Assembly: GCA_964291315.2 (NCBI GenBank) | Contig: OZ219753.1 | Coordinates: forward strand, 1,888,001-1,952,000 | Reading direction: 5' to 3' | From: Candidatus Poribacteria bacterium | GTDB lineage: Bacteria; Poribacteria; WGA-4E; WGA-3G | DNA: 64,000 nucleotides | Part shown: piece by piece, positions 46,233 to 64,000 of the stretch | Layout of the letters: the number at the start of each line of letters is the position of its first letter | Numbering within the stretch: position 1 is the first letter of the stretch | Position numbers and translations under genes: made by a program | The notes under the pieces: model-generated | The model's database searches: none | The model's input: the letters and a program-made list of their open reading frames with translations, nothing else | What the model was told of the DNA's origin: nothing

Positions 46233-48053
46233 ATGAACAAACCAGCGGCAGAAATCCGCTCCATTCTGGCAACCGATTGCGGCAGCACAACAACAAAGGC
46301 CATCCTCATTGAAAAACGAGGAAACCAATATCAACTCATCGTCCGCGGCGAAGCACCCACCACTGTCGAAACCCCCGTCGAAGACGTAACAGCCGGCGTT
46401 ATCAACGCCATCACTGAAGTCGAGGAACTCGCCGGACGAAAACTCCTCCATAAGGGCGGCATCCTCAAACCCCAACACGGAGACGAAGGCGTCGATATTT
46501 ACATATCAACCAGCAGCGCCGGCGGCGGACTCCAAATGATGGTAGCAGGCGTCGTACGAAACCTCACAGCAGAAAGCGCCGAACGCGCCGCACTCGGCGC
46601 AGGCGCAATTGTCATGGACGTTATCGCCTCCAACGACAAGCGACTCCCACACCAAAAAATAGAACGCATCCGACACCTACGCCCCGACATGCTACTCCTC
46701 TCCGGCGGCGTTGACGGCGGAACAACCTCACACGTCGTCGAACTCGCAGAAATTATCGCAGCCGCACGCCCAAGACCCCGATTGGGCAACGCTTATGAAC
46801 TCCCACTCATCTACGCAGGAAACAAAGACGCACGCCAAGCCGTCCAAGAACGACTACACAACCTGATGACCCTAGAGATTGTGGAAAACCTAAGACCCGT
46901 CTTAGAACGCGAAAACCTCATGCCGACTCGCCATAAAATCCAAGACCAATTCTTGGAACACGTCATGGCACACGCCCCCGGCTACAAAAAATTAATCCAA
47001 TGGACAGACGCACCAATTATACCCACACCCGGAGCCGTCGGCGAAATTATACAGACCGTCGCCGCACAACAAAATATCGCCGTCGTCGGCGTCGATATCG
47101 GCGGCGCAACAACCGACGTCTTCTCTGTTTTTAAAAACCAAGCAGATCAACCCATCTTTAACCGAACCGTCAGCGCCAACCTCGGCATGAGCTACAGCGT
47201 CTCAAACGTCCTCGCCGAAGCCGGCATCCAAAACGTTCTCCGCTGGGTACCCTTCGATATTGAAGTCGGCGACCTCCGAAACAGAATCAAAAATAAAATG
47301 ATCAGACCAACCACAATCCCACAAACCTTGCAAGAGCTCATCCTCGAACAAGCAATCGCACGAGAAGCACTCCGCCTCGCTTTTCAACAGCACAAGCAAC
47401 TCGCAGTCGAATTGCGCGGCGTCCAACAACAACGCACCATCTCCGAAGCCTTCGCTCAAACCGAAAGCGGCCAAACCCTCGTCGATATGATCGACCTAGA
47501 CATGATCGTCGGAAGCGGCGGCGTCTTATCACACGCACCCCGCCGTCAACAAGCCATGATCATGATGATAGACGCTTTCCAACCCGAAGGTATAACCCGC
47601 CTTGCCGTCGACAGTATCTTCATGATGCCCCAACTCGGCGCACTCGCACAAGTCAATCCCGAAGCCGCTACCCAAGTCTTCGAACGAGACTGCCTCGTCC
47701 ATCTCGGCACTTGCATCTCCCCCATCGGCACCGGCAAGCCAGGAGAACAGTGTCTCTCTGTCGAACTCAACCTCCCAGGGAAACCCCCTATCGTTCAGGA
47801 CGTACCTTACGGCGAAATCCAGCTCTATCCGCTCGAATCAGGTCAAAAAGCAGCAGTAAAACTCCAACCCGCACGACGATCTGACCTCGGCGCCGGGAAC
47901 GGCACCCAAATCGAGACAGAAGTGATCGGCGGCGTTGTCGGAGTAGTTATTGATACCCGCGGGAGACCCCTCGAAATCCCAACCGATTCCAATCAGCGAG
48001 TCACACAGCTGACAAAGTGGCAAGCCGCATTAGATGCATATTCCTCACCCTAA
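46233..48053 (+). CDS. glmL: GlmL/MutL-type glutamate mutase accessory ATPase (actin-like fold)
   Basis: DCGSTTTK, SSAGGGL, SGGVDGG, DIGGATTDVFS, RTVSANLG. Confidence 0.85.
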   Translation: MNKPAAEIRSILATDCGSTTTKAILIEKRGNQYQLIVRGEAPTTVETPVEDVTAGVINAITEVEELAGRKLLHKGGILKPQHGDEGVDIYISTSSAGGGLQMMVAGVVRNLTAESAERAALGAGAIVMDVIASNDKRLPHQKIERIRHLRPDMLLLSGGVDGGTTSHVVELAEIIAAARPRPRLGNAYELPLIYAGNKDARQAVQERLHNLMTLEIVENLRPVLERENLMPTRHKIQDQFLEHVMAHAPGYKKLIQWTDAPIIPTPGAVGEIIQTVAAQQNIAVVGVDIGGATTDVFSVFKNQADQPIFNRTVSANLGMSYSVSNVLAEAGIQNVLRWVPFDIEVGDLRNRIKNKMIRPTTIPQTLQELILEQAIAREALRLAFQQHKQLAVELRGVQQQRTISEAFAQTESGQTLVDMIDLDMIVGSGGVLSHAPRRQQAMIMMIDAFQPEGITRLAVDSIFMMPQLGALAQVNPEAATQVFERDCLVHLGTCISPIGTGKPGEQCLSVELNLPGKPPIVQDVPYGEIQLYPLESGQKAAVKLQPARRSDLGAGNGTQIETEVIGGVVGVVIDTRGRPLEIPTDSNQRVTQLTKWQAALDAYSSP

Positions 48054-48088
48054 GGCAACCTTCTAGCAATTCCGTAAATTTATTTTAT

Positions 48089-48117
48089 TTGACAAATTTT
48101 TATTAAAAATATAAGAT
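48089..48117 (+). promoter_or_regulatory. sigma70-type promoter
   Basis: TTGACA-N17-TAAGAT. Confidence 0.65.
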
Positions 48118-48251
48118 ATGCGTGTAATGTGGAAATTTTCCACTAACCTTTGAAAAATACCAGATGTTTTCTGGTTTAAACCCCTCGGTGAATCCAAATT
48201 TTGCTTAGGTTCACCAAACTGTATTACAAAACGCAAAGGAGACAAATTTTA

Positions 48252-49085
48252 ATGAAAAGCTTTTATCTATGGACAATAGGAATCGCCACGATCCTACTAC
48301 TCCCTATCGCAACCTTACAACCCGTATTCGCACAAGCAAACGATATCGTCGGAGGCCCCTTGAAAAAAGACGAACTCATGGAAGACCCACAACCCAACGC
48401 TGACGGCCAGAGAGAGAGTCACAATGACGTTGATACGTGGATTACCAAGTGGTACGGCCCCGACGGCAATTACGAAAACAATGGAGGGTTTCCCGCCTCC
48501 GCACCCAAAGACCTGATCGACGAAGGCACTGGCGGTAAATTGACGCAAGTCAAACTTTCCACAAGTGCAGGATTACAGCTCACCCAAACCGTTGATATGA
48601 AATGGAAGGGAGCGAACGGCGGAACTCGAAAATGGACCGTCTTTGAGCTCGACCCCGCAGACGGAAACAACATGAACCGGGGCGGTCCCGTAGATAACAT
48701 TGACACTTATGGGATTATCGTCCTTAACTCGCCTGCCGCCCAAAAAGCCATCATGTCCCCCGCACACGACGATCACGCCCAAATTTGGATCAACGGCGAA
48801 AAGTGGTACAATAACTCCAAATGGACAGGCGCAGCACAAACAGTGCTTCACAACGTCGAAATTGACTTGAAAAAAGGAGCTAACATCCTCCTCTACCGAG
48901 TCGGCGAATCAGGCGGATCCGCTTATATCAACCTCCATTTTGATGAAGACACCCACAAATCCGTTAAAATCTATCCAGACAAATCCGACGACCAAGACAG
49001 CTTCTTTCAAGAAATCCAAGGAGTACTTGATGTCGAACCGAAAGGTAAGCTCACAACCGTTTGGGCAGACGTTAAACGGAAATAA
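48252..49085 (+). CDS. exported protein with C-terminal GKLTTVWADVKRK motif
   Basis: AAAGGAGA RBS before ATG 48252; signal peptide (VFA-Q); HDDHAQIWING beta-sandwich-like core. Confidence 0.8.
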   Translation: MKSFYLWTIGIATILLLPIATLQPVFAQANDIVGGPLKKDELMEDPQPNADGQRESHNDVDTWITKWYGPDGNYENNGGFPASAPKDLIDEGTGGKLTQVKLSTSAGLQLTQTVDMKWKGANGGTRKWTVFELDPADGNNMNRGGPVDNIDTYGIIVLNSPAAQKAIMSPAHDDHAQIWINGEKWYNNSKWTGAAQTVLHNVEIDLKKGANILLYRVGESGGSAYINLHFDEDTHKSVKIYPDKSDDQDSFFQEIQGVLDVEPKGKLTTVWADVKRK

Positions 49086-49125
49086 AACCGAAAAGCGCCC
49101 TATTTTTCAGCTCACCATAATTCGC

Positions 49126-49155
49126 TTGACAAGCTGACACATAGGACGTTATAAT
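49126..49155 (+). promoter_or_regulatory. sigma70 consensus promoter
   Basis: TTGACA-N18-TATAAT. Confidence 0.7.
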
Positions 49156-49272
49156 AACAAGTTATAAGGCGCTGTTTGAGCGTCTTATAACCGAAAGAAA
49201 ATTAGGGAGCAACCAACGCAACCTAATTATGTCTAACCTTTAATCAATCTAAAAAAAGGACGTAGTACCAGA

Positions 49273-50106
49273 ATGAAAAGATTTGATACCTTAGCACTCA
49301 CAATCGTGACGGTCTTCGCGTTAAGTATGACCTTATCACACCTCGCATTCTCACAGGCCAACCTCATCCAGGGCGGACCGCTAGCTGAAGACATGCTCCT
49401 AGAAGACCCCGAACCTAACGCCGACACACAGAGAGAAGACCGCAGCGCCGTAGACACCTGGATCACCAAGTGGTACGGACCCGACGGCAACTATGAGGAA
49501 AACGGCGGCTTCGCAACTTCAGCACCAATGGACCTGATCGACGAAGGCACCGGCGGCACACTCAACCAAGCATCGCTCTCAACCCTCAATGGACTCCTCA
49601 TGACGCAAGACATGGTCGTGGAATGGGGCGACGACCACGGCGGCCCAAGAAACTGGTCCGTTTTTGAAATCGACCCCACCGACGGAAATAACATGAACCG
49701 TGAGGGACCCGCGGATAACTTCGATGGATACGGGATTATCGTCATCGATTCACCCAGCGATATGACTGCTATCATGTCGCCCGCACATGATGACCACGCA
49801 CAAATCTGGATCAACGGCGAAAAATGGTACAACAACTCCCGATGGACAGGCGCAGCACAAACAATCCTTCACGATGTCGAAGTTGAATTGCAAAAAGGTG
49901 CCAACGTTCTCGTCTACCGACTCGGCGAATCAGGCGGGTCTGCATACTTGAACTTGCACTTTGATGCCGCAACAACCGATGCGGTTACCATCTATCCACA
50001 CGATGCAACCGATCAAGCCAGCTTCTTCGACGAAATCCTCCCACTGGCTGCCGTCGAAGCCACCGGAAAACTAACCACTACCTGGGCAGATATCAAACGC
50101 AAGTAG
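49273..50106 (+). CDS. exported protein, tandem paralog, C-terminal GKLTTTWADIKRK
   Basis: Long identical blocks with upstream gene (DTWITKWYGPDGNYE, MSPAHDDHAQIWINGEKWYNNS). Confidence 0.85.
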   Translation: MKRFDTLALTIVTVFALSMTLSHLAFSQANLIQGGPLAEDMLLEDPEPNADTQREDRSAVDTWITKWYGPDGNYEENGGFATSAPMDLIDEGTGGTLNQASLSTLNGLLMTQDMVVEWGDDHGGPRNWSVFEIDPTDGNNMNREGPADNFDGYGIIVIDSPSDMTAIMSPAHDDHAQIWINGEKWYNNSRWTGAAQTILHDVEVELQKGANVLVYRLGESGGSAYLNLHFDAATTDAVTIYPHDATDQASFFDEILPLAAVEATGKLTTTWADIKRK

Positions 50107-50127
50107 ATATCTTCTCCTATTTTTCGC

Positions 50128-50155
50128 AGGCGCGCTCACACAGCGCGCCTTTTTT
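50128..50155 (+). terminator. intrinsic terminator
   Basis: AGGCGCGCT-CACAC-AGCGCGCCT followed by T-run, just after stop codon. Confidence 0.85.
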
Positions 50156-50183
50156 GTTCTCATGTCCAAATCGCGCACAACGC

Positions 50184-50212
50184 TTGACAAATGCAAATCA
50201 ATACGTTAAAAT
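50184..50212 (+). promoter_or_regulatory. sigma70-type promoter of batC-batD
   Basis: TTGACA-N17-TAAAAT. Confidence 0.65.
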
Positions 50213-50272
50213 ATCTTCCAGCCAATCCACACAACCAACAAGCACACGCGCAAAAACAACAGGTGACACCGC

Positions 50273-50902
50273 ATGCAGAACAAGTGGCTCATAATTTACG
50301 CCTCGATCCTCTTATCCACCGCCTTGATCGGATGGGGCAGCGGATGGACACGCTTCGTGAAAACCGGCAACGAAGCATATTCGCACGCACGTTACGACGA
50401 AGCACATACCGCTTTTCAGCAAGCAACCCTTGAAAACACCGACAACCCCATTCCACCTTACAACCTCGGCACCGCACTCTATAAAAAACATAGATTTCAA
50501 GAGGCAACCCGCGCATTTCAGGAAGCACTCTCAAGACACAGCACGCAGACCGAAGACCTCCCACATCTCGCGGATATCTATTACAATCTGGGAAACGCCC
50601 AATTTAAAATGGGCGACCTCAGAGATTCCATCGAATCTTACAAACACACTCTCCGATTGAATCCACAAGACACCGATGCCCAATACAACCTCGCATTGGC
50701 ACAGCAACTCCTCAGACAGCAGGCTGAAGCACCACAACAGCAACCGAACGAAAAGGCTGCACACCAAACCGAACCCCGAAAAGGCAGCGAGGCAGAAGCC
50801 CTGCGCCACTTGGAACGTTTGAGTCAGAATGAAAATAGACTACGGCAAAAATTACTACACAAACAGAGCAAAAGTGGGCCTCGGCGTGAAAAAGATTGGT
50901 AA
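50273..50902 (+). CDS. TPR protein, BatC-like
   Basis: TPRs (YNLGTALY, YYNLGNAQF, AQYNLALA); C-terminal EKDW. Confidence 0.85.
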   Translation: MQNKWLIIYASILLSTALIGWGSGWTRFVKTGNEAYSHARYDEAHTAFQQATLENTDNPIPPYNLGTALYKKHRFQEATRAFQEALSRHSTQTEDLPHLADIYYNLGNAQFKMGDLRDSIESYKHTLRLNPQDTDAQYNLALAQQLLRQQAEAPQQQPNEKAAHQTEPRKGSEAEALRHLERLSQNENRLRQKLLHKQSKSGPRREKDW

Positions 50903-52700
50903 GCTACCCCGCGCTTTTGTAGCACACATCAGCAGTTTGCGCCGTACCACGCTGAAATGCACCAGGAAATCACCCAAAAAAACGCCTAAACCAACCTGGG
51001 CACTCCTTCTCTTCCTAACACTCCCCTTTTTGGCAGCTGCCCAACAGATGCAAAACACAGTAGCAGCGCAACCCACTGTCAATATCGCAGCCGTCATCAA
51101 ACCGCGCCACATCCAATTCGGAGAAAAGGCGCGCTTGGAACTCACAATCTCCGGGAATACCCATATCCAACACATCAAAACGCCCAAATTCAACTTTTTA
51201 CCCGCGTTCCTCGCAGTCCCAATCCACTCCCAAACCATACCACAACTCGAAGCAGACAAAATCGCCGTCTCCATGGCATGGATCTATGAACTTATCCCAC
51301 AAGCCGTCGGCGACTTCGCCCTCTCCGACATCCGTTTCGCCTATCAAGACAATCTCTATTTCGCCAACCCAGGTTCAATCCGTGTCACCGGCGCTGACAC
51401 CTACCACGAAGCCTCAACCGGCGGCGTTCACCGCATCGAAGTCCAAGTCGATACCGAAAAACCGTACCTCAACGCCCCCTTTAACTATACCTTCCGCTAC
51501 CTCTACACCACCGTACTCCCCACTCGCGACACACTAACCCCGCGACTGCCAACGTTTCACAACTGCTCCCTCGGGAAATCGCAAAAACCACCCTTATATA
51601 CACGCAACGTTCGCGGGAAAACATTTTGGGTCAACGAACAAACACACACCTTATATCCACAGAAAACCGGACTGATAAACCTTCAACCCGCCGAACTGCT
51701 ATTGCCGCTACCGCAAGCACACAAAATCTTGAAAACCGAACCCTTGACGCTGAACGTGCAACCCATACCGGAAACAGGCAGACCCGCAAACTTCAACGGC
51801 GCCATCGGCGAATACCAAATCTCAGCCCAACTGGAACGCGGACGAATAGAAATCGGACACGCACTCACGCTCACAGTGCATATTGCCGGACGCGGCAACA
51901 TGCAGACAGTCACACCCCCTGAATTGCCAACACTCCCCGGAATCAATGTAAGCGGACCCAATTCCCAAACCGCCGATACATCTGATCTCACGCCTACAAG
52001 CCGAAACTACGTCTATACGCTAACACCAAAACGAATTGGAACACTGCGGATCCCGCCAATTCTCTATAGCTACTTCGATCCGAACCGCGCAACGTATGCA
52101 ACCACGCAGACTGCCGAGATCCCCCTCTCTGTCTATACCGATCCGACGCGTGTGGATCCGAATACCATCGAAAACGACGGGAGAGCTTGGAAAGTCTGGA
52201 TCGTCATCTTAATCGCGAGCGCCCTCTTAATCGCACTGCTTGTCGGATTCCTCCGATATCGTTCGAACTTGAAAATATTTTCAAGACGGGTTGCAAGCCA
52301 CCTGATTGGAAAGACTCCATCCGACCCCGATAAAACGACAGAGATGGAAACCGACACACCAGCAGCACAAGCACAACAGACAATCGCCGCTCTCGCTTCT
52401 ACCAACACCACCACACGCGAAGCAGCTGCGTTCACACATACGCTCACACAAACGCTCTATCGCTACTTAGAAAGCACACTGCCACTCTCACAACCCAATA
52501 TAGAGACCCTTCAACAGATAGGCACACACGCACACGTTGCCAACGATGTCCTAGAGGAATTGGTCGATCTCTTAAAGAAGTGTGACTACTATCGATTTGC
52601 CCCTGTACCGCTCAGTAACTACGAACGGGATACCCTCATCACTCGCGCTCAAGCCATCATCGACCATATTGAAAACCGCCAAAACGCTCATAGCAAGTGA
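50829..52700 (+). CDS. BatD-family protein (true start probably downstream, e.g. TTG 50937)
   Basis: FNGAIGEYQI, GRGN, YSYFDP, single TM, CDYYRFAP. Confidence 0.8.
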   Translation: MKIDYGKNYYTNRAKVGLGVKKIGKLPRAFVAHISSLRRTTLKCTRKSPKKTPKPTWALLLFLTLPFLAAAQQMQNTVAAQPTVNIAAVIKPRHIQFGEKARLELTISGNTHIQHIKTPKFNFLPAFLAVPIHSQTIPQLEADKIAVSMAWIYELIPQAVGDFALSDIRFAYQDNLYFANPGSIRVTGADTYHEASTGGVHRIEVQVDTEKPYLNAPFNYTFRYLYTTVLPTRDTLTPRLPTFHNCSLGKSQKPPLYTRNVRGKTFWVNEQTHTLYPQKTGLINLQPAELLLPLPQAHKILKTEPLTLNVQPIPETGRPANFNGAIGEYQISAQLERGRIEIGHALTLTVHIAGRGNMQTVTPPELPTLPGINVSGPNSQTADTSDLTPTSRNYVYTLTPKRIGTLRIPPILYSYFDPNRATYATTQTAEIPLSVYTDPTRVDPNTIENDGRAWKVWIVILIASALLIALLVGFLRYRSNLKIFSRRVASHLIGKTPSDPDKTTEMETDTPAAQAQQTIAALASTNTTTREAAAFTHTLTQTLYRYLESTLPLSQPNIETLQQIGTHAHVANDVLEELVDLLKKCDYYRFAPVPLSNYERDTLITRAQAIIDHIENRQNAHSK

Positions 52701-52786
52701 GCAGATACTAAAATCAGCAGTTAGAATCAAATCTGCACTATAGCAACTCTTAACACTTTGACAACACCCGAAAGGAGTCATGAAAA

Positions 52787-53293
52787 ATGGAAATACTCTC
52801 ACTTTTTGTTCTCTGGTTGCACGTCATCGCTGCCGTTACCTGGATCGGCGGCAACCTCATCTTAGCCACAGTAATTGTGCCACACTTCAGGCAGAACCTA
52901 CCGCCTGTCCAACGCATCCAACTGCTAACACAGATAGGCAAACGTTTTGAACCCATCGTGTGGGGCTGTGTCGGTATCCTGTTTTTTACCGGTATTGTTA
53001 ACATCTTCTCTGCTGTAGACCTCACCTCTCCCGATGCACTCTCAGGCGCGTTTATGCGGACACTGCTTATCAAGCTCGGACTCTTCTTCCTGCTGGTTAT
53101 CCTTACAGCACTACACGGCATGCTCTTCGCACCGCAACTGTCCGCTGCAATTGAGAACTTGGACCCAGACGCAGAGGAGCTACCGCCCGAACTTAAACCC
53201 CTCCGGGCGCGAATGGCAATAGTATCCAGTCTGATGGGCGGCGTCTCCCTACTCGTCTTGCTCGCCGCAGTCGCCCTCCGCATGGGAATCTGA
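52787..53293 (+). CDS. CopD/DUF4149-like 4-TM membrane protein
   Basis: WLHVIAAVTWIGG, TGIVN, LLIKL. Confidence 0.75.
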   Translation: MEILSLFVLWLHVIAAVTWIGGNLILATVIVPHFRQNLPPVQRIQLLTQIGKRFEPIVWGCVGILFFTGIVNIFSAVDLTSPDALSGAFMRTLLIKLGLFFLLVILTALHGMLFAPQLSAAIENLDPDAEELPPELKPLRARMAIVSSLMGGVSLLVLLAAVALRMGI

Positions 53294-53336
53294 GCTATAC
53301 CGATCAGCTATCAACAACCCGTAATTCACACTTGCC

Positions 53337-53364
53337 GCAGGCGAGGTCTACCTCCCTCGCCTGC
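53337..53364. repeat. perfect 10-bp hairpin upstream of cas6 (REP-like or terminator)
   Basis: GCAGGCGAGG-N8-CCTCGCCTGC. Confidence 0.6.
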
Positions 53365-53382
53365 TAACTTGGAGATAACCTG

Positions 53383-54135
53383 ATGCGAATCAAAATCCTC
53401 GCTGATGTTAAAGGCGGACTCACGCTCCCGATCAACTACAACCACACCCTCACCGGCGTTATCTACCATTACCTTGCCGAATCCGACCCAAAATACGCCA
53501 ATTTCCTACACAAGAAGGGTTACGTCAACGAGCGCAAACAGTTCAAACTCTTCACCTTTTCGCAGCTCATGGCGGAACACAGAAGCCTCATCGGCGACCG
53601 AATCCACTTCGGCTCAACCTTAACCTGGTACGTCTCCTCTCCGGTAGAGACCTTCCTACACCACTTCGCCAATACGCTGCTAACGGGGGGCACCTTGAAC
53701 CTAGGAGAACACCGGCTGCCAATCAAAAATGTTAATGTGCCTCGTACACCGCGCTTCCAACCACAGATGCGTTTTCGGTGCCTCTCCCCGATGGTAATGA
53801 CCACCGTGCGTGAGCGAGCCGGAAAACGAGTCATGCACTACTGCCTCCCGGACGACCCCGCATTCTCCGATCTCGTCCGTCAAAACCTAATTCGCAAGCA
53901 TGAGGTCATCCACGGCCGTCACCCAACCGATGCGACCTTCACCCTCGAATTCGACAAGAATTACATCGCTAGAAGACACGGGCGCGTCACACGTCTCGTA
54001 GACTACAAAGGTGTCAAAATCCGGGGGATCTTATGTCCACTGACTATTTCTGGCAGTAGGGCATTGATTCAAACCGGCTACGAGTGCGGCTTCGGCGACA
54101 AGAACAGCGCCGGCTTCGGCATGGTAGAAGTCTAA
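53383..54135 (+). CDS. cas6: CRISPR endoribonuclease Cas6
   Basis: LPINYNH, FKLFTFSQL, G-rich loop GFGDKNSAGFGMV. Confidence 0.95.
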   Translation: MRIKILADVKGGLTLPINYNHTLTGVIYHYLAESDPKYANFLHKKGYVNERKQFKLFTFSQLMAEHRSLIGDRIHFGSTLTWYVSSPVETFLHHFANTLLTGGTLNLGEHRLPIKNVNVPRTPRFQPQMRFRCLSPMVMTTVRERAGKRVMHYCLPDDPAFSDLVRQNLIRKHEVIHGRHPTDATFTLEFDKNYIARRHGRVTRLVDYKGVKIRGILCPLTISGSRALIQTGYECGFGDKNSAGFGMVEV

Positions 54136-54147
54136 ACAAATTTTAAT

Positions 54148-54176
54148 TTGTATTAAATGGGTAAAGGTTGTATAAT
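54148..54176 (+). promoter_or_regulatory. internal promoter upstream of cas8
   Basis: TTGTAT-N17-TATAAT; AAAGGAGG RBS downstream. Confidence 0.6.
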
Positions 54177-54211
54177 ACATATGTTACATTTTTGAAAGGA
54201 GGTTAGGCTTC

Positions 54212-55624
54212 ATGCCAATCTATGAAAAACTAATGGGAAATCCATTTGTTGATGCCGGGGTATCTGGTATCTGTGAATGGTTGGGACGCAGTGTCCAACC
54301 GGAACAGATTACTGAAAAGGATCTTGGGAAAATTGTCGACGAATTCCTTCCTATGGCGACAAACTGGGAAAAGTGGACTTCAATTTTCACAATAAACCAT
54401 CCATTGACAAACGGTAGAAAGAGCGAGCGTGTGCCACAGTTCAAGAGAAGACTACTTGGATACATTGACCAAACTATAGAGCTCGGAAAAGTTGGGGATT
54501 GTATGGGATGTGGTAGACGTGATGTAGGTGAAACACCTTTACTTGACAGAACAGGAGCTCCTTTAACAGGCGGGAAGAATAGTAACTTTTTCCCGATCTT
54601 TTCAGAGGGAGCCGGTTATTGCGCCGCTTGCAGCTTTGCGATCCAGTTCTTACCTCTTTCCTTAGTTGCGACTGGTAGTAGTGGTGGCAGATTCCTAATG
54701 CTTCACTCCCAGTCTTGGGAACTTATGCAGGTTTGGACAATATGTTGTCTCAAAGGTTTTCGACAACAATACACTCAACAAAAATTGAGCAGCTGTTTTA
54801 AGCCTAATTATGAAAATTCTCGCAACGGTCTGTTTTACATGGTACGAGAGATGATTATCGAACTTGAGGAAAGGCAGCTCGATGACGAAATCGATAAAGA
54901 TGTATCCATGGAGGTCTATTCCTTTACAAATAACAATCAGTACCCTGGTATCGATATTTTTTATATCCCATCTTCAGTCTTTAAATTTCTGTGTCAGGCT
55001 GAACAGAATCCCTATAAAGAGGACTGGCACAGAATTGTCAAAATCGGTTATGGAAAAGGGAGACCTGAAAAACACTACCAGAAAACAAGAAACCTTGTAT
55101 ATGAGTATTTATTAGAAGACAGATCTATTCGTGGTTTTTTTCTCAATCGACGAGAACAAAAATCACGCGGAAATTGGAAATTGCTCTCTCTTTACTTAAT
55201 GGAGGTAAGAAAAATGAAGCCAGCACGGATTGAGAAAATCAAGCAGGTCGGCGATTTAATTGCAGAAAGTATCCGTAAATCTGAAAAACGCGGCAAAACG
55301 AGACTTGGGAATCTTGCAGACGCCGAAACGTACGCCGACTGCCGCAAAGCTTTATTACGCATCGTTGAAGATAGAATTCGGCAAAAAGAAGCTGAACCCT
55401 TATTTTCATTCGATGATTGTGTCGAACATATTTTCATTTCAGACGATGATATTGTAACTTGGAGCGACGAATTGGATGATGGTGAACTAGATGATGAACA
55501 AAAAGAACAGTTCATGCATGCTGTGAGCGATAACGTCACGTTTTGGCGTGAGACTCGCGACCTATTACTCTTTCGGATTTATGAAAAACTTCACAACTGG
55601 TTAACTGAACAGGAGGAAGATTAA
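54212..55624 (+). CDS. cas8b1: type I-B large subunit Cas8b1/Cst1
   Basis: GNPFVDAG, CxxC...CxxC (CMGC, CAAC), position between cas6 and cas7. Confidence 0.85.
   Translation: MPIYEKLMGNPFVDAGVSGICEWLGRSVQPEQITEKDLGKIVDEFLPMATNWEKWTSIFTINHPLTNGRKSERVPQFKRRLLGYIDQTIELGKVGDCMGCGRRDVGETPLLDRTGAPLTGGKNSNFFPIFSEGAGYCAACSFAIQFLPLSLVATGSSGGRFLMLHSQSWELMQVWTICCLKGFRQQYTQQKLSSCFKPNYENSRNGLFYMVREMIIELEERQLDDEIDKDVSMEVYSFTNNNQYPGIDIFYIPSSVFKFLCQAEQNPYKEDWHRIVKIGYGKGRPEKHYQKTRNLVYEYLLEDRSIRGFFLNRREQKSRGNWKLLSLYLMEVRKMKPARIEKIKQVGDLIAESIRKSEKRGKTRLGNLADAETYADCRKALLRIVEDRIRQKEAEPLFSFDDCVEHIFISDDDIVTWSDELDDGELDDEQKEQFMHAVSDNVTFWRETRDLLLFRIYEKLHNWLTEQEED
55214..55624 (+). CDS. cas11: putative internally translated small subunit Cas11
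   Basis: GGAGGT at 55201-55206 and in-frame ATG at 55214; 136-aa helical C-terminal domain. Confidence 0.7.
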   Translation: MKPARIEKIKQVGDLIAESIRKSEKRGKTRLGNLADAETYADCRKALLRIVEDRIRQKEAEPLFSFDDCVEHIFISDDDIVTWSDELDDGELDDEQKEQFMHAVSDNVTFWRETRDLLLFRIYEKLHNWLTEQEED

Positions 55625-55626
55625 CC

Positions 55627-56652
55627 ATGTCTAAGCACCTTATTGGATTAACCCTAATTGATGCGCCTTATTCCGCGTTGAACAATGATGAAGAACCAAG
55701 GAATAGCCGGTATGATAATCAAGTTGTTGTCAAAACCCTTAAGAAAGGACGTAGGCTAGGTATCTATCCCTATGTTTCCGGGCAAGCATGGCGGAACTGG
55801 TGGCGGACCACACTTGTGCATGAGTTTGACAATTGGAATAATTCACCGATTGAGCGCGCAGACAAAGTTGCCTATACTAAGGCTGATCCCGTAACATATG
55901 ATGACGACGATGTGTTTGGGTATATGCGGGCGGAAAAAAGAGAGGACACTGATGTGACAGTAACTCGTTTATCGCCCCTTAAATGTTCCCCCCTTATCTC
56001 CATTTCTCCACAAATTCCAACGAATGATTTTGGAGTCATGGCCCGCCAAGACGGTGATCCTGTACCTTATAAACACCAATTTTACTCTTGTGTTTTACAA
56101 GGCATCTTTTCCTTAAATCTCGACGCAGTTGGTGTGTTCTCAGCTATAAACAGAACAGGCTATAAAAATATTCTCCACAGCTATATTCCAACTATTGAAG
56201 CCGCGCATGGAACAAGAGAGAATGAAAATTCCCCGTGGGTTCTCCCCAAAGAAACTCGCGTTCGGCGTTGTAGACAAACCCTCGAAGCACTTCCTATCCT
56301 TACGGGAGGGGCTAACCTGACTTCACACCTCACTGACGTTACACCGAAATTGATCATTCTATCGGTGCTTAACGGCGGCAACCACCCCTTCATGAACCTG
56401 GTTGTCGAACGAGACGGAGCAGGACAACTCAGTCTTGAGGCACTCCGCGAGGTCGTTAACGATTATGCCGACCGCTTCTGTGATGCAATTTACATCGGCA
56501 GACGCACCGGATTTATGGATGAACGCCATACCGATCTGACTGAATTCGCAAATGACACAGCTCTCCCCTGCGATGTGGTTTACGATACGCCCAACAATGT
56601 CATCGCCCAACTTTCACAAACGCTAGAGAACCACATCGGAGATTCGCCATGA
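55627..56652 (+). CDS. cas7: Cas7/Cst2/DevR backbone subunit
   Basis: YPYVSGQAWRNWWR, DDDVFGYMRA, TRLSPLK, TDVTPK. Confidence 0.93.
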   Translation: MSKHLIGLTLIDAPYSALNNDEEPRNSRYDNQVVVKTLKKGRRLGIYPYVSGQAWRNWWRTTLVHEFDNWNNSPIERADKVAYTKADPVTYDDDDVFGYMRAEKREDTDVTVTRLSPLKCSPLISISPQIPTNDFGVMARQDGDPVPYKHQFYSCVLQGIFSLNLDAVGVFSAINRTGYKNILHSYIPTIEAAHGTRENENSPWVLPKETRVRRCRQTLEALPILTGGANLTSHLTDVTPKLIILSVLNGGNHPFMNLVVERDGAGQLSLEALREVVNDYADRFCDAIYIGRRTGFMDERHTDLTEFANDTALPCDVVYDTPNNVIAQLSQTLENHIGDSP

Positions 56653-57443
56653 AAGTAATTCGGGTTCATCTCACCGGTTGGGTCGCGTCTTTTCGGAATC
56701 CGCTATTTATTAGCGGATTCCAACCGACGCTCCCTTTACCGCCACTCTCGACACTCTATGGATTGCTTACCGCTGCAAAAGGGGACTGGATTACACCACA
56801 TGATGCCAAAATCGGGTTTGTCTTCCAAAGCAACGGGAAAGGGGTTGACCTAGAAACTGTCTACGAGTTTGACCAAACTTTGAGCCCAAAATCTAGGATA
56901 AACCAGCAGCAATCTGGCTCCGGGTCTTCAAGAACGTTCTACTCAATGTCTATGAAACCTAACATAAAAAAACGTGAATTTCTTGTCGATCCCCAACTTT
57001 ATCTCTATAGCCCAGAAATGTGGTTACAAGAAGCATTTGAAAGACCATACTATCCCATACTATTAGGACGATCCTCTGATCTGGCAACTGTGAAATCCAT
57101 AGAGAAAATTGAGTTGGAAAGCAGAACGGAAACAACTTATCGAGACACAATAGTACCCTTTCCTGATCCGCAACTTTATGGACAAATGCTGGCACTCCCT
57201 ACGCACTTCACATCAGAGATACCTCGTAGACCCTGCGGCACCCGCCCTTACTACCTCATAACGGAACCGATTCCGTACACCGGTAATGTATTACATGACC
57301 CTGACATGAATTGGGGAGTCTATCTGCACCAACGCATTCCAGGGGAGTTTGTGATCCCAACTCTTCCAACGAGGAGACCTGTTGACAAAAACCATTCAGT
57401 TCCCGACCTGAACGGAGAACAGATGCCGCTCTTTGACTACTAA
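56649..57443 (+). CDS. cas5: type I-B Cas5 with C-terminal extension
   Basis: ASFRNP, TLPLPPLSTLYGLL, REFL, LLGRSSDL. Confidence 0.93.
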   Translation: MKVIRVHLTGWVASFRNPLFISGFQPTLPLPPLSTLYGLLTAAKGDWITPHDAKIGFVFQSNGKGVDLETVYEFDQTLSPKSRINQQQSGSGSSRTFYSMSMKPNIKKREFLVDPQLYLYSPEMWLQEAFERPYYPILLGRSSDLATVKSIEKIELESRTETTYRDTIVPFPDPQLYGQMLALPTHFTSEIPRRPCGTRPYYLITEPIPYTGNVLHDPDMNWGVYLHQRIPGEFVIPTLPTRRPVDKNHSVPDLNGEQMPLFDY

Positions 57444-57461
57444 TCAATTGGAGGAACTTGC

Positions 57462-59714
57462 ATGTCCATGCTATTGGCAAAGAGTCTTCCCAAAGTGGAA
57501 ACTCTTCACGAACACACAGAGAATTGCCTTGACATATACAACAGCCTCAAAGAACGAATGCCGTTCTTAGCTGAAATTGCAAAAAACCCTGATTTCTTTA
57601 ATCACCTCTTTTATGCCGTTGCACTACACGATTTCGGAAAAGCAGCGACGGGATTTCAAAAGCAACTTACCCATCGTAAGCAATGGAACTACCGCCACGA
57701 GATTCTCTCCGCTGGGTTTGTTGCGGGGCTTCAACTCCACAAATCAGAAAAAGAGGCAATCGGACTTGTCATTTTAACGCATCATAAAGACGTTGATACC
57801 CTCAGACATACCTACCGCCATTATCCTGAGAATATTGAAGGATTTCAAATCTGGCAAGAGAAAATCGAAGAATTAGAAGAACATTGGGAACAGTTAATGA
57901 TAATTCAGAAACAAGTGACTATTTGGTGCCCCATGGAAGAATGTTTATGGACCCCAGTCGCTTCAACTGACCAACTTGTTAACGGTTACCAACATTTTCT
58001 ACTGCCTTATCGTAAGGATAAAAGAAAGACTGAAAGAACCGGTGAAAGGACTTCTTTACACAGCACATACGGCATGCTCCTCCGCGGATGCATGATCGCC
58101 TGTGACCATCTCGCTTCAGCCGGAAAAAACGAAATCCATACCGCACTCGACAACATGGAAGCAAACCTTATACAACACCTCGAAAATAGAATGACAGAAA
58201 GAGGACAACACTTTCAGGACTGGGAGGACTTTCAAAAAACCGCCAGCCAAACAACCACACAACTCATGCTCTCCGCACCAACAGGATCCGGCAAAACCGA
58301 AGCCGCACTCCTCTGGTCACATAAAAACCAGTCTGAAACACTCGGCAACCGTGTTTTCTATGTTTTACCCTACACCGCAAGCATCAATGCCATGTATAAG
58401 CGCATAAAAGAAATTGTATCTGACGAAAAAATCGGTATGCTGCACGGCAAAGCCTCCTACTTCGTTTATCAGCAGCTCGCTGACAAAAGTTGTAACTACC
58501 GAGAAGTCGCAGCCGAAGTCCGAACGCAGCAGAACCTGACCAAAAAAATCTGTCGCCCTTACAAGGTCCTAACCCCCTTTCAGCTCCTGAAAGCCTTCTT
58601 CGGGATCCGCGGCTTCGAAATGCAAATGGCAGAAATGTCTAAAGGGCTCTTTATCTTTGATGAAATCCACGCTTACGACCCGCACACAACCGCCCTCATC
58701 TTAACAATGATGAAGAGACTCAAGAATGACTACGGCGCAAAATTCTGCATCATGACCGCTACAATGCCACACTTCCTCAAACAGAAAATTAGCGAAGTAC
58801 TTGGCGAACCTACACAAATTGAAATGGCAGCCGAAGAACGCGATAAATTTACACGCCACCGGGTGCAATTAATAGATGGAAACATCCAAACTACAACTCC
58901 CTTGATTCGAGAACGCCTCACACAAGGAAATACGGTATTGGTCGTTTGCAATACTGTCCGCCAAGCTCAAACCATGTTTAAAGAATTGCGGGACGTAAGC
59001 GACAACGCAAAAATACTTCACAGCCGATTTATTCTAAAAGACCGCGAGCGGATTGAAAAAGAACTCGATAACACCAATTTACTGGTAGGAACACAAGCAG
59101 TGGAGGTATCGCTGGATATTGATTTCGACTGCCTCTTTTCCGAACCCGCACCCATCGATGCCCTCATCCAACGTTTCGGTCGAATCAACAGAAAACGCCA
59201 AAAAGGAATCTGTGATGTCTACATCTGCAAAAACGGAGGCGAAAACGATCACTTCATCTATTCCACACAAAGAATTCAACGCACCCTAAACGCATTGAGA
59301 ACTGTAGACACCCTGCACGAATCCAAAATTCAGAACCTAATTGATGCTGTCTACTGCAAAGGTTACAATGAAAAGGAACAGGAGAAATATGACAAAGCAG
59401 AACAAGCGTTCGATCACCACCTGAAAAACATTTTTCCCTTTATCGAGGACAAATCCGGACGGGACGAATTTGGGGAACTTTTCAAAAGCATCAGTGTTGT
59501 CCCCTCTATTTTTGAGAACAATTACTTAGCTCATATCACAGCGAAAGAGTATTATGAGGCCATGGCTTATGTGGCACAAATTCACGCCTATCAATTTAAA
59601 CAGCTGCGTCAAGACGGGCAACTCTATGAACTTAAAAAGCAATGGTTCACAAAACTTGACTATGATGAAACACTCGGTCTAATTTTAGAAAAACACAGCA
59701 CAAATATTTTATAG
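57462..59714 (+). CDS. cas3: Cas3 HD nuclease-helicase
   Basis: HDFGK, RHE, HH, DHLAS; APTGSGKT, DEIH, MTAT, QRFGRINR. Confidence 0.96.
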   Translation: MSMLLAKSLPKVETLHEHTENCLDIYNSLKERMPFLAEIAKNPDFFNHLFYAVALHDFGKAATGFQKQLTHRKQWNYRHEILSAGFVAGLQLHKSEKEAIGLVILTHHKDVDTLRHTYRHYPENIEGFQIWQEKIEELEEHWEQLMIIQKQVTIWCPMEECLWTPVASTDQLVNGYQHFLLPYRKDKRKTERTGERTSLHSTYGMLLRGCMIACDHLASAGKNEIHTALDNMEANLIQHLENRMTERGQHFQDWEDFQKTASQTTTQLMLSAPTGSGKTEAALLWSHKNQSETLGNRVFYVLPYTASINAMYKRIKEIVSDEKIGMLHGKASYFVYQQLADKSCNYREVAAEVRTQQNLTKKICRPYKVLTPFQLLKAFFGIRGFEMQMAEMSKGLFIFDEIHAYDPHTTALILTMMKRLKNDYGAKFCIMTATMPHFLKQKISEVLGEPTQIEMAAEERDKFTRHRVQLIDGNIQTTTPLIRERLTQGNTVLVVCNTVRQAQTMFKELRDVSDNAKILHSRFILKDRERIEKELDNTNLLVGTQAVEVSLDIDFDCLFSEPAPIDALIQRFGRINRKRQKGICDVYICKNGGENDHFIYSTQRIQRTLNALRTVDTLHESKIQNLIDAVYCKGYNEKEQEKYDKAEQAFDHHLKNIFPFIEDKSGRDEFGELFKSISVVPSIFENNYLAHITAKEYYEAMAYVAQIHAYQFKQLRQDGQLYELKKQWFTKLDYDETLGLILEKHSTNIL

Positions 59715-59806
59715 GGAATCTTACACTTTGCACCAAACTATAGTGGGTTTTATATGGGACAAACTCATTATTCTGAGGTGTTTTTCTACCCTAAAAGAGG
59801 CACACA

Positions 59807-60316
59807 ATGCAAAACCCAGAATATACCAACATCACCGGCACAGCCATTAACTATCTCTACGTCTGCACACGCAAACTCTGGCTCTATCAACACCATCTTG
59901 AAATGGAGCATACCTCCGAAGCTGTGAACCTCGGACAGCACCTTCACGAACAGAGCTACACCCGTGAAAAACGCAGAGAATGGCGTATCGACGACCTCAT
60001 CCAAATAGACTTTGTCGATAAACACGGCGTCCTTCACGATATCAAGTCCGGCCCAGCGATGGAAACCGCACATATCATGCAGCTCTGTTATTATCTGTAT
60101 CTGCTAAAACAGAAGGGCGTACCCAACCGGAAAGGGGTCATCAACTATCCACGCCAACGCCGCACCACAGAAGTCGAACTCACGCCAGAAAGAGAACAGG
60201 AACTCGAAACCGCCATTGAAAAAGTGAACCACATCGCCACGCTGCCAACACCACCCCATGCCGACTACATGAAAATATGCAAGTCATGTAGTTATCAAGA
60301 GCTCTGTTGGAGCTAA
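59807..60316 (+). CDS. cas4: Cas4
   Basis: YVCTRKLW, QLCYY, CKSCSYQELC. Confidence 0.94.
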   Translation: MQNPEYTNITGTAINYLYVCTRKLWLYQHHLEMEHTSEAVNLGQHLHEQSYTREKRREWRIDDLIQIDFVDKHGVLHDIKSGPAMETAHIMQLCYYLYLLKQKGVPNRKGVINYPRQRRTTEVELTPEREQELETAIEKVNHIATLPTPPHADYMKICKSCSYQELCWS

Positions 60317-60412
60317 AGCGAATAAACACGCGCGGTGTGCTGCCCGCAATATAAACGCTGGCGCACAACTCTTAGCACTTATTCTTATAGCTATGCATCA
60401 AGGAAACAAATT

Positions 60413-61408
60413 ATGTCACGCAACTACTACATCACTCAACCCGGCAGCTTGCGACGGAAAGATAACACACTTTATCTACAACCAGAGCAGGCTCCTCGTA
60501 TCCCCATTCCCATAGAGGATGTCGACGCACTCTACTTCTACGGGGAACTCGACCTCAACACAAAGCTCCTTAATTTTCTTGCACAGAAGCACGTCGCCTT
60601 TCACGTCTTCAACTACTACGGCTACTATTCCGGCAGTTATTATCCGAGAGAATATCTCAATTCCGGTTCGCTTCTCGTTAAACAGGTGCAGCATTATGAA
60701 AAGAGGACCAAACGCATGTCACTCGCTCACGAGTTTGTCGCCTCCGCGGGATTCAACATGCTGCGAGTCTTGCGCTATCATACCAATCGCGGTAAAGATT
60801 GCAACCCACAAATCCAAACAATAAAAAAAATACTCACAGAAGCCCGCACCGCGAAAAATACCAACGAATTGATGGGATATGAAGGCAGCATCCGAGACCT
60901 CTACTATACCGCTTTCAATACCATCCTTACCTTACAAACACCCTTGCAAACCCGCACACGGCGCCCACCCGATAACCCTATTAACGCCGCAATCTCCTTC
61001 GGCAACTCCCTGATGTACGCCGCCTGTCTAACCGAAATCTATAGAACCCAGCTCAACCCAACCATCAGCTTCCTACACGAACCCGGCGACAGACGATTCT
61101 CCCTCAGCCTCGACCTCGCAGAAATCTTTAAACCCCTGATTGTCGACCGTATCATCTTCCGACTCTTCAACCGAAAACAGCTCAACGAATCAAAACACTT
61201 TCAAACCGAAGTCGGAGCATGCTACCTCAATCAAACCGGACGCAAAGTGTTTATCGCAACATTTGATGAACAGCTCAAGCAGACCATCTCACACCGAAAA
61301 TTGAAACGCCACGTCTCCTATCAACGCCTTATCCGGCTCGAGTGCTATAAACTCATCAAGCACCTCATGGATATAGAGACCTACCAAGCCCTTCGACCGT
61401 GGTGGTAG
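60413..61408 (+). CDS. cas1: type I-B Cas1
   Basis: RRKDNTL, FNYYGYYSGS, RRPPDNPINA.ISFGN, FLHEP, DLAEIFKP; start at ATG 60413. Confidence 0.96.
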   Translation: MSRNYYITQPGSLRRKDNTLYLQPEQAPRIPIPIEDVDALYFYGELDLNTKLLNFLAQKHVAFHVFNYYGYYSGSYYPREYLNSGSLLVKQVQHYEKRTKRMSLAHEFVASAGFNMLRVLRYHTNRGKDCNPQIQTIKKILTEARTAKNTNELMGYEGSIRDLYYTAFNTILTLQTPLQTRTRRPPDNPINAAISFGNSLMYAACLTEIYRTQLNPTISFLHEPGDRRFSLSLDLAEIFKPLIVDRIIFRLFNRKQLNESKHFQTEVGACYLNQTGRKVFIATFDEQLKQTISHRKLKRHVSYQRLIRLECYKLIKHLMDIETYQALRPWW

Positions 61409-61435
61409 AAACAATCCGATGCTTCTACCATACCT

Positions 61436-61522
61436 TGTTAGTCTGTGCGTCTATTAGCCTTGTAGCATAGACTGTCAATCTGTGTATCTATTAGCCTTGT
61501 AGCATAGACTGTTAGTCTGTGC
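61436..61522. repeat. tandem 37-bp units carrying GTAG-type REP palindromes between cas1 and cas2
   Basis: TCTATTAGCCTTGTAGCATAGACTGT occurs twice with period 37, plus a partial first unit. Confidence 0.8.
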
Positions 61523-61554
61523 ATCCATAGCATCACCATAAGGAGCTACCGATA

Positions 61555-61818
61555 ATGTATATCATTCTCGTCTATGATATTCAAACCGATCGCGTCGCAA
61601 AAGTCTGTAAGTATCTGCGACAACATCTCAACTGGATCCAAAATTCTGTTTTTGAAGGACACTTAACCAAAGCCCAGCTCGCGCGCGTCAAATCTGGGTT
61701 AGCCGCACTCACCGATCTCGAAAAAGATTCTATTATTATCTATCAACTCCGCGATGCACGCTGGATGAATAAAGAGGTGATGGGTGTAGATAAGAACCCT
61801 GCCACCAACTTACTTTAA
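61555..61818 (+). CDS. cas2: Cas2
   Basis: AAGGAG RBS; ILVYDI, WIQNSVFEG, DSIIIY. Confidence 0.96.
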   Translation: MYIILVYDIQTDRVAKVCKYLRQHLNWIQNSVFEGHLTKAQLARVKSGLAALTDLEKDSIIIYQLRDARWMNKEVMGVDKNPATNLL

Positions 61819-62029
61819 ACGCGTTTTTAGCCAGAATCTAACCGCTAAACCTGCTGTCGACCGCTCTTAATTGCCTGCCTCGCGAGAACAAATCCTCCAT
61901 GGTGTTTAACGGAAAAGCAGAACCGACCTTGGCACCATAAAGAGCAGTCAACCTGCCAGCAATTTTGCACGACCGGCGGTTGACACGGTGCTTACGGATC
62001 GAGCGGCATATATACGTAGCTTTCATAAC

Positions 62030-62129
62030 CTCTTTATCGAACCAATATGGAACAAAACAAGCATTGATCGAACCCATCAAAACCCACCCGGCCAGCCACT
62101 TTTAATAGAGGCCAGCGTGAAATCTAAAA
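62030..62129 (+). CRISPR. degenerate mini-array (pseudo-repeat, 40-nt spacer, pseudo-repeat)
   Basis: 62030-62058 matches repeat ~25/30, 62099-62129 ~23/30 by hand alignment; preceded by a leader-like copy. Confidence 0.7.
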
Positions 62130-62188
62130 AATAGACTTGACACGGTTGATAAGGATCTAGTATAATATATTAATGGCTTCCATAAAGC
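62130..62188 (+). promoter_or_regulatory. CRISPR leader with promoter
   Basis: TTGACA (62137)-N18-TATAAT (62161), AT-rich, abuts first repeat. Confidence 0.8.
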
Positions 62189-64000
62189 CTTTTAATCGAA
62201 CCAGTATGGAATCGAAACTATTAGCAAGCGTTTTAGGCGGTATTGTGTGCGAAATACTTTTAATCGAACCAGTATGGAATCGAAACGCAGTTGACAGGCT
62301 TCGTAAAGCTTTTGGATTTAAACTTTTAATCGAACCAGTATGGAATCGAAACACACCGGATGCTTATTATGCATTGTTAGAAGGTCTTTTAATCGAACCA
62401 GTATGGAATCGAAACCTGTATCCGCTATCCTAAAAATACCACGCATATCCGACTTTTAATCGAACCAGTATGGAATCGAAACCTGTGTGCGGGGATCAGG
62501 TCGATCGAGATAGCGTTCCTTTTAATCGAACCAGTATGGAATCGAAACTCGCGACACTTTGCTAGCAGTAGAGAGCATGCGTGACAACGACTTTTAATCG
62601 AACCAGTATGGAATCGAAACTGTGGTCATCGTGTCGAAGTCACGATGACAAGCGGAAACTTTTAATCGAACCAGTATGGAATCGAAACTCTTTCTAAATC
62701 CTTTTTGAATGGTGCCCCGCCGTTCTTTTAATCGAACCAGTATGGAATCGAAACGGGCTTTACTGGAACGGTGTCTGTTGTGAGAGTAGTCTTTTAATCG
62801 AACCAGTATGGAATCGAAACCTTAGAATCACGTGAATAACCCAACGGCATCTCAAACTTTTAATCGAACCAGTATGGAATCGAAACTTTTGAATGAGGCC
62901 CCGCCGTTTCGGGCGGGGCGGGGCTTTTAATCGAACCAGTATGGAATCGAAACGAGGTTCAACTTGGCAGGTTTAGGCGTTTTCAAGCTTTTAATCGAAC
63001 CAGTATGGAATCGAAACAATCCAACTTCCAATTCTACGGGGAGACTATCCCCGCTTTTAATCGAACCAGTATGGAATCGAAACCTCCTCGAACCCACCAT
63101 CACCATCGCTGACGATGCACTTTTAATCGAACCAGTATGGAATCGAAACGTTTCTCTAGCCAGCGCAGGCAATCTATCCGAGATAGCTTTTAATCGAACC
63201 AGTATGGAATCGAAACTAGTGGTATCGGCTCTATAACTCGTCACGCCTTGCCTTTTAATCGAACCAGTATGGAATCGAAACTGAACAACGATATATTAAC
63301 TGGCAAATAATCTAACCCTTTTAATCGAACCAGTATGGAATCGAAACCTGGCAAGAAGCGATTTCACAATTAGGGTTGGACCCGCTTTTAATCGAACCAG
63401 TATGGAATCGAAACGATGTTATGCCTACGGAGCAACGTTGGCAACGACACTTTTAATCGAACCAGTATGGAATCGAAACCACCGCTACTGCGGAATACAG
63501 CACCCCTTCCTTAACTTTTAATCGAACCAGTATGGAATCGAAACTTCAGTATCGGGTCGAAGGTAGATCAGTTTTGCTGGCTTTTAATCGAACCAGTATG
63601 GAATCGAAACTCGGCAACGGTGGATAACAACACAGTTTATCTTTACCTTTTAATCGAACCAGTATGGAATCGAAACTCGGCACGCCGTTTGTTTACACCA
63701 AGACCTCGCCTTCTTTTAATCGAACCAGTATGGAATCAAAACCGCGATAACCTTTCGCATCTTTCCACCAGAAATCGCTTTTAATCGAACCAGTATGGAA
63801 TCAAAACGATACTCATTGAGTGTGATACCGCGGTTCTTCGCTTGCTTTTAATCGAACCAGTATGGAATCAAAACTCGTCTAACTCATGTGCTTCGACGTA
63901 AGCATCCACTTTTAATCGAACCAGTATGGAATCAAAACTTGATACGAAGATCAATTGCTTCTGTGAAGGAAAATTCCTTTTAATCGAACCAGTATGGAAT
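62189..64000 (+). CRISPR. CRISPR array, repeat CTTTTAATCGAACCAGTATGGAATC(G/A)AAAC, 28 repeats (last truncated), 27 spacers of 33-42 nt
   Basis: Direct count; 3' ATCGAAAC handle and upstream leader indicate + orientation; continues past window end. Confidence 0.99.

Follow-up and report, generated by a model that had tools for sequence, protein, structure and literature searches.

In Candidatus Poribacteria, the leader of a type I-B CRISPR array is preceded, on its cas2 side, by a block of leader-like and repeat-like sequence that is probably a decaying relic, namely a lineage-specific, microhomology-bounded duplication of the array promoter and the first repeat(s). The block comprises, in this order, a decayed leader copy (L′), a first pseudo-repeat (psiR1), 8 nt, an internally deleted repeat, 15 nt, a second pseudo-repeat (psiR2) and 7 nt, after which the working leader (L) begins. 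We infer that microhomology determined its origin and that it is without function. Two readings had been put forward in an earlier note on this DNA, a decayed leader-end duplication and a regulatory crRNA-like gene. The first is favoured because the promoter in L′ appears dead, no target rises above chance, relatives lack the block, the would-be handles are damaged and variable, and the putative spacer contains a deleted repeat; the second is not supported, and each test that was feasible indicates decay rather than use. The window, i.e. the whole stretch of 64,000 nt that was analysed, corresponds to G000:C4:1888001-1952000, and coordinates without a contig label refer to it.

Genomic setting

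The window harbours a type I-B CRISPR-Cas locus, with a complete set of eight cas genes and an adjoining array (Table 1). The array is built on a 30-nt repeat, with spacers of 33–42 nt. Its transcription on the + strand is deduced from two facts: the sole sigma-70-like promoter lies on this strand, and the most degenerate repeat, with 3 changes, is the last one. Repeats 1–23 carry the 3′ end ATCGAAAC, 10 of repeats 24–34 carry ATCAAAAC and repeat 28 has ATCTAAAC; the switch from ATCGAAAC to ATCAAAAC is located within 63713-64402, and single variants occur in repeats 28, 33 and 34. Spacer 25 (63808-63844) is identical to spacer 30 (64142-64178, past the window end), and the spacers at 62703 and 62887 have a 22-nt stretch in common at 91%; both cases are evidence of in-array duplication or repeated sampling.

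Three tandem 37-nt units occupy 61422-61532 in the cas1–cas2 gap and are members of a repeat family that is scattered over the genome (92 BLAST pieces); the strain variants X1 and X2 described below skip 55 nt there, and contig depth piles up. Directly upstream of the cas operon, a 623-aa ORF (50829-52700) is without NCBIfam match.

Table 1. Coordinates of the cas genes, the array and the elements of the block upstream of the leader
Feature	Coordinates	Strand	Remarks
Type I-B cas operon	53383..61818	+	NCBIfam matches above curated cut-offs for all eight genes
cas6	53383-54135	+	NCBIfam
cas8b1/cst1	54212-55624	+	NCBIfam
cas7	55627-56652	+	NCBIfam
cas5	56649-57443	+	NCBIfam
cas3	57462-59714	+	NCBIfam
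cas4	59807-60316	+	NCBIfam
cas1	60335-61408	+	NCBIfam
cas2	61555-61818	+	NCBIfam
Conserved leader inverted repeat (hairpin)	61943..61985	+	3′ arm ends TTGAC(A), the exact start of L′
L′, decayed promoter/leader copy	61980..62029	+	69% identity to L; -35 TTGACA kept, -10 lost
Pseudo-repeat 1 (psiR1), 29 nt	62030..62058	+	5 edits from the 30-nt repeat
Putative spacer, 40 nt	62059..62098	+	Deleted repeat 62067-62083 and remaining 15 nt 62084-62098
Pseudo-repeat 2 (psiR2), 31 nt	62099..62129	+	8 edits from the repeat; weak alone
L, working leader promoter and leader–repeat junction	62137..62188	+	TTGACA, 18 nt, TATAAT; conserved in relatives
Main CRISPR array	62189..64000, continuing 402 nt beyond the window end	+	34 repeats, 33 spacers

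The leader promoter and its apparent copy

The promoter of L (62137-62166) matches sigma-70 elements at 12 of 12 positions and is the sole such site found by a promoter scan of 61400-62300. When L′ is aligned with L, 36 of 52 columns are identical, with z = 7.5 and a score that none of 2000 shuffles attains. This bears out the ~70% leader copy described in the earlier note, whose coordinates and sequence strings also agree with the DNA. A whole-genome BLAST of the intergenic region pairs L′ plus psiR1 with L plus the first repeat (56/75, E = 4.8e-6). Homologous to L and directly abutting psiR1, L′ is, to judge from its sequence, a copy of the CRISPR leader promoter. At the position of the -10 box, it has CGGCAT versus TATAAT in L, with four mismatches in a row over the box, and the sigma-70 scan of 61400-62300 does not call it as a promoter. 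The -10 box is thus degraded, as had been claimed, and the promoter in L′ is predicted to be dead.

Upstream of L′, the leader hairpin is kept in all 14 related leaders aligned and folds at -15.2 kcal/mol (z = -2.4). Its arms read GTCAACC.../...GGTTGAC, and a direct copy of the arm motif, GTCGACC (61856-61868), is found ~90 nt upstream. In this leader family, hairpin and upstream motif copy may serve to bind a protein or to guide integration.

A terminator scan finds no + strand terminator between cas2 and the block, so that read-through transcription of the block is possible. This would suit an alternative in which the block encodes a crRNA-like regulator of the CreR/CreA type that arose recently in this lineage. 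Its transcripts would come from cas2 read-through or start at a weak promoter, and Cas6 would cut them in psiR1 and psiR2. The resulting RNA would load type I-B Cascade and repress a promoter via a short seed match. Existence of such a regulator is quite unlikely, and the proposed mode of repression is no less so: the cas operon is intact and transcription could reach the block, but a promoter of its own was not found.

Pseudo-repeats and the 40-nt segment

The 30-nt repeat was compared by edit distance with all 8.79 million genome positions. At 5 edits, psiR1 is the sole site in the genome, and outside both arrays only two orphan repeats are closer to the repeat. The likeness of psiR2 is weak, since its 8 edits are reached by 32 genome sites and ~34 non-array sites are at 8 or better. 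What distinguishes psiR2 is its position: a site of this grade at a spacer-length offset (33–42 nt) behind psiR1 has p ~4e-5, by arithmetic from the genome scan counts. Accordingly, the claim that a pseudo-repeat lies at each side of a 40-mer holds, clearly for psiR1 and weakly for psiR2. Spacing and asymmetry, with a well-kept psiR1 and a degraded psiR2 40 nt apart, correspond to the geometry of described regulatory mini-arrays; they count in favour of a regulator and against a relic. That the whole block reflects chance similarity or an assembly artefact is of negligible probability. On its own, psiR2 is no better than 32 other sites, but the score of L′ against L, the uniqueness of psiR1 and the independent contigs from three runs that span the block contradict this explanation.

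The two pseudo-repeats have decayed in different ways. In psiR1, a 1-nt deletion falls inside the last 8 nt, i.e. in the would-be 5′ handle; psiR1 also has the A16 and A26 states, found otherwise only in the oldest array repeats. In psiR2, the repeat sequence is unchanged over the first 8 nt and kept at 10 of the first 12, a preservation of the 5′ end that counts for a regulator and against a relic. In haloarchaeal CreA, the best conserved part of psiR1 is its last 8 nt, the Cas5-binding 5′ handle, and the first 12 nt of haloarchaeal I-B repeats, the Cas6-binding part, are kept in CreA psiR2, according to the parts of PMC9458426 relied on here. By this comparison, the deletion in psiR1 argues against function and the retention of 10 of the first 12 nt in psiR2 argues mildly for it. 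For the canonical repeat, folding gives a small hairpin in two parts (-4.0 kcal/mol). Both pseudo-repeats fold at -0.6 kcal/mol; psiR1 retains 3 pairs, the outer stem being lost, and psiR2 has none of the repeat's pairs. The missing outer stem of psiR1 counts for a relic.

The segment between them had been taken for a spacer-sized 40-mer. Its positions 62067-62083 consist of ATCGAACC (repeat positions 7–14), 1 nt, and ATCAAAAC (repeat positions 23–30), so that 1 nt stands in place of 8. The pattern ATCGAACC, 0–14 nt, ATC[A/G]AAAC has 37 matches in the genome, of which 36 are array repeats and 62067-62083 is the only one outside. The 40-mer therefore does not stand as a spacer: it is not a clean one, and its 5′ half is a third, internally shortened copy of the repeat. 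Because it holds this deleted repeat, the block is better seen as repeat debris than as a repeat–spacer–repeat unit, which also weighs against a regulator.

Other searches with the block returned nothing of significance. None of the 33 array spacers is a significant twin of the 40-mer (best local score 19, p = 0.08), and a likeness to spacers 31 and 33 noticed by eye is not significant. Phage records give no BLAST match to 62030-62130. Rfam reports nothing in the block, its only hits being sub-threshold matches of CRISPR-DR2 to canonical repeats and a spurious one of Histone3. Metagenome contigs hold no exact match to the deleted-repeat part of the 40-mer or to the 3′ end of psiR1. An 80-aa minus-strand ORF with a TTG start (61838-62080) was rejected as a gene; it is without NCBIfam match and spans sequence missing in relatives.

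Comparison with related species

A search of relatives recovered homologues of cas2, leader and array in many congeners, with some match in 25 of 41 genomes, G000 counted. From the start of the hairpin to the end of repeat 1, the distance is 159 nt in each of the 13 loci from the same genus and 147 nt in a single locus from a different genus, versus 272 nt in G000. The leader of G000 is thus 113 nt longer than those of the same-genus loci, and the extra segment starts right after a shared TTGACA. In relatives, the leader consists of a hairpin ending in TTGACA, ~39 nt, and then the -35 TTGACA of the promoter; in G000, the TTGACA of the hairpin doubles as the -35 box of L′. Hence the extra 113 nt begin at a 6-nt microhomology.

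The earlier note had named absence from related loci, together with lack of transcription or processing, as a sign of a neutral relic, and here the comparison goes against a conserved function: none of the 14 homologous leaders in related species has the block, and a search with 61940-62140 finds it in none of 64 other genomes of the genus. Nine of the latter do give a match, which covers the hairpin only in seven, an ordinary leader with repeat 1 in G074, and 20 nt in G068. The exact 20-nt match in G068, with no repeat or leader nearby, is ascribed to chance.

The boundary on the right-hand side is less sharp. The 39-nt segment of relatives is not repeat-like (12–15 edits; null mean 13.9), and therefore the likeness of psiR2 to the repeat is a trait of this lineage. 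A robust alignment of G000 with relatives before the -35 box is limited to the last ~19 nt. The 3′ part of psiR2 and 62130-62136 align with the relatives' segment directly upstream of the -35 box. MAFFT sets the 39-nt segment against psiR2 and hmmalign sets part of it against psiR1, so that the right-hand junction differs by aligner. The 3′ half of psiR2 may be either repeat-derived or ancestral leader.

The paralogous locus and relative timing

Outside the window, C4:724724-725382 carries a second, decayed CRISPR locus, which has a leader copy of its own and ~4 repeats that all belong to the ATCAAAAC type. A 257-nt cas1 fragment, 89.9% identical to 60838-61094, is joined there straight to the equivalent of 62062-62200 (84.9%). 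Thus, cas2, hairpin, L′ and psiR1 are deleted, and the retained part is 84–85% identical overall, a background level. Identities with the window amount to 32/37 for the 40-mer, 23/31 for psiR2 (copy at C4:725015), 5/7 for the linker and 46/52 for L. Between the paralogues psiR2 is the worst-kept segment and no segment is better kept than the promoter, although 11 of the first 12 nt of psiR2 are identical in both copies. The loss of L′ and psiR1 from the paralogous locus counts for a relic, and the loss of psiR1 in particular against a regulator. An ORF resembling ZorA of the Zorya anti-phage system lies ~360 nt downstream of this locus.

The paralogous locus also provides a relative chronology. 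Since the 40-mer, psiR2 and L are present there, this second half of the block is older than the locus split. Divergence between L′ and L is 31%, and that across the locus split 12–16%. An A is found at repeat position 26 in psiR1, in the deleted repeat and in the first three full-length repeats of the paralogous array. In the main array, this position is A in 10 of the 11 oldest repeats (24–34; repeat 28 has T) and G in the 23 newest. The simplest order of events would be the duplication, then the locus split, then an A-to-G change in repeat 1, and finally 23 spacer acquisitions. The block is older than much of the array. Having outlasted both the split between the two loci and at least 23 spacer acquisitions, and being present in three strain-level variants, it shows a persistence that counts against a relic.

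A further explanation takes the block as the remnant of an older array head. In that case, the array would at first have been headed by L′ and three or more repeats, a new leader–array module would have been joined downstream by illegitimate recombination, and the old head would have decayed via internal deletions. Three repeat-derived pieces lie indeed behind L′, and psiR1 and the deleted repeat have A26, like the oldest repeats 24–34 and the paralogous array and unlike the 23 newest. This explanation is nevertheless unlikely. L and the leader of the A26-type paralogous array are sisters (46/52) and have derived bases in common that are missing in L′; L is hence no foreign element, and one A-to-G substitution in repeat 1 is enough to account for the switch. 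Moreover, the ~39 nt found in relatives between hairpin and promoter are missing before L′, and the older-head model thus needs an extra deletion.

Strain variants

Independent contigs from three runs of one study (X1–X3) span the block and represent three strain-level variants. The X2 contig (404 nt, 61812-62216) has 9 differences and 1 gap, and the X3 contig (315 nt, 61903-62215) has 32 differences, most of them not itemised, and 1 gap. Intergenic identity is 97.5% versus 98.8% for cas2 in X2, and about 90% versus 94.7% in X3, i.e. the intergenic sequence is about twice as divergent. In the X1/X2 variant, five substitutions occur within 61988-62107, at 62018, 62030, 62045, 62058 and 62077. 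Three of the five (62030, 62045 and 62058) are inside the 29 nt of psiR1. The C>T change at 62058 affects the final base of the would-be handle of psiR1, that at 62045 returns the canonical G, and that at 62077 hits the handle-like octamer of the deleted repeat.

Spacer conservation across strains, a check named earlier, has a mixed outcome: the block is present in the variants, with substitutions in psiR1 and in both candidate 5′ handles. Its persistence in strain variants favours a regulator. On the other hand, a would-be 5′ handle with both a 1-nt deletion and a polymorphic last base is at odds with CreA, where the handle is the best-conserved part of psiR1, and absence from 14 homologous leaders and 64 congeneric genomes restricts the block to the strain level. 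Metatranscriptome contigs (run X18) contain only cas2-like sequence (~85% identity) and repeats; they leave 61851-62137 uncovered and hence are uninformative on expression of the block.

Target searches

Targets were sought with a seed defined as positions 1–5 and 7–11, on both strands and without PAM filter. Genome-wide, there are 9 non-self seed matches versus 9.7 in shuffles; none exceeds 13 nt and none is in the window, in agreement with the earlier report that the window holds no convincing target. An alternative spacer start gives 4 genome-wide matches versus 7.3 in shuffles, again none longer than 13 nt and none in the window, and the 15-nt alternative 'spacer' behind the deleted repeat gives 5 versus 5.0. 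In the cas locus (48000-61979), no site matches at 9 or more of the 10 seed positions, versus ~1 in shuffles, and the longest exact match is 9 nt, versus a shuffle mean of 9.8. The genome-wide check suggested in the earlier note, conceived for PAM-flanked seeds and run here without PAM filter, thus yields matches at or below shuffle level, which weighs against a regulator. Regulatory guides require only ~10–11 matching bases, so that a genuine target may escape such statistics.

A variant of the functional reading exploits this point. A leader-end duplication would have delivered a promoter remnant and repeat copies in one step, as a newborn regulatory mini-array whose putative RNA is cotranscribed with cas2 and processed by Cas6. 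This birth of a mini-array is improbable. So, to a similar extent, is the role that its RNA would play, either in titrating Cas6/Cascade or in repressing a target through a seed too short for statistical detection.

Comparison with known mini-arrays

The closest parallel is CreA/CreR of Haloarcula hispanica and relatives, also of type I-B (PMC9458426; bioRxiv 10.1101/2023.03.10.532045). As far as the portions of these reports used here go, CreA/CreR and the block are alike in having two degenerate repeats about one spacer length apart and in being part of a type I-B locus, in the orientation of its array. Unlike CreA/CreR, the block has no promoter of its own that was found and no seed match to a cas or toxin promoter in the search without PAM filter. 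Its psiR1 handle is damaged, whereas that of CreA is conserved. It is found between cas2 and the leader, not in the cas6–cas8 region, its 'spacer' contains a deleted repeat, and it is not conserved beyond strain level.

I-B mini-arrays with a well-kept upstream and a degraded downstream repeat, which can adjoin an array, are described by Shmakov et al. 2023 (bioRxiv 10.1101/2023.03.03.530964), in the part of the preprint considered here. These mini-arrays occupy a conserved position, and their targets, flanked by a PAM, are in the cas6 promoter. Many standalone repeats are regarded in the same source as spurious duplications, probably functionless. The block fits this picture as a repeat-like match outside the array with the upstream copy kept and the distal copy degraded. 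It differs in two respects from what these sections report: it carries a copy of the leader promoter at the leader end, whereas the origin proposed there is duplication of the terminal unit or array truncation, and no target was found, whereas the conserved I-B cases target the cas6 promoter.

Another parallel is offered by the other end of arrays. At the trailer end, the terminal repeats of a CRISPR array degenerate by neutral decay once they are not renewed by spacer acquisition. The same neutral decay would account for the block, although it lies upstream of an active leader and not at the trailer. A full-text literature search found no description of an active leader that is preceded by a duplicate of itself, which is not proof that none exists.

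Possible origin and implications

If the block is a duplication of the leader end that has since decayed, a copy of the promoter and first repeat(s) would have come to stand directly behind the TTGACA of the hairpin, with microhomology between two TTGACA boxes guiding the placement. This may have happened in one step, by template switching, or in two, with a tandem duplication and a subsequent deletion of 44 nt. The array would have remained under the control of the downstream promoter L while the upstream copy decayed. L′ would then have lost its -10 box, psiR1 would have gained 5 edits, the handle deletion among them, and 7 internal bases would have been deleted from the second repeat; the third is now barely recognisable.

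The case is a caution, in that a visually convincing regulatory mini-CRISPR looks like a decaying duplication once related loci are compared, and the block supplies a relative timeline for the locus. More generally, microhomology-bounded leader-end duplications can yield promoter-plus-repeat modules, raw material that could be recruited into genes of the CreA/CreR type. If functional, the block would be an unusually young regulator in an unusual place, between cas2 and the leader; if a newborn mini-array, it would give a rare snapshot of how a CreR/CreA-type gene originates.

Orphan repeats

Two repeat-like sequences occur elsewhere in the genome. At C4:2414190-2414214, an orphan repeat with 4 edits is located in the 159-nt fabH–fabD gap of a fatty-acid synthesis operon, both genes being NCBIfam-confirmed. 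A second one, with 3 edits, is intergenic (C4:2527934-2527961), and ~38 nt downstream of it a 21-nt stretch resembles the tail of L′ at 17 of 21 positions, a likeness that is not significant alone.
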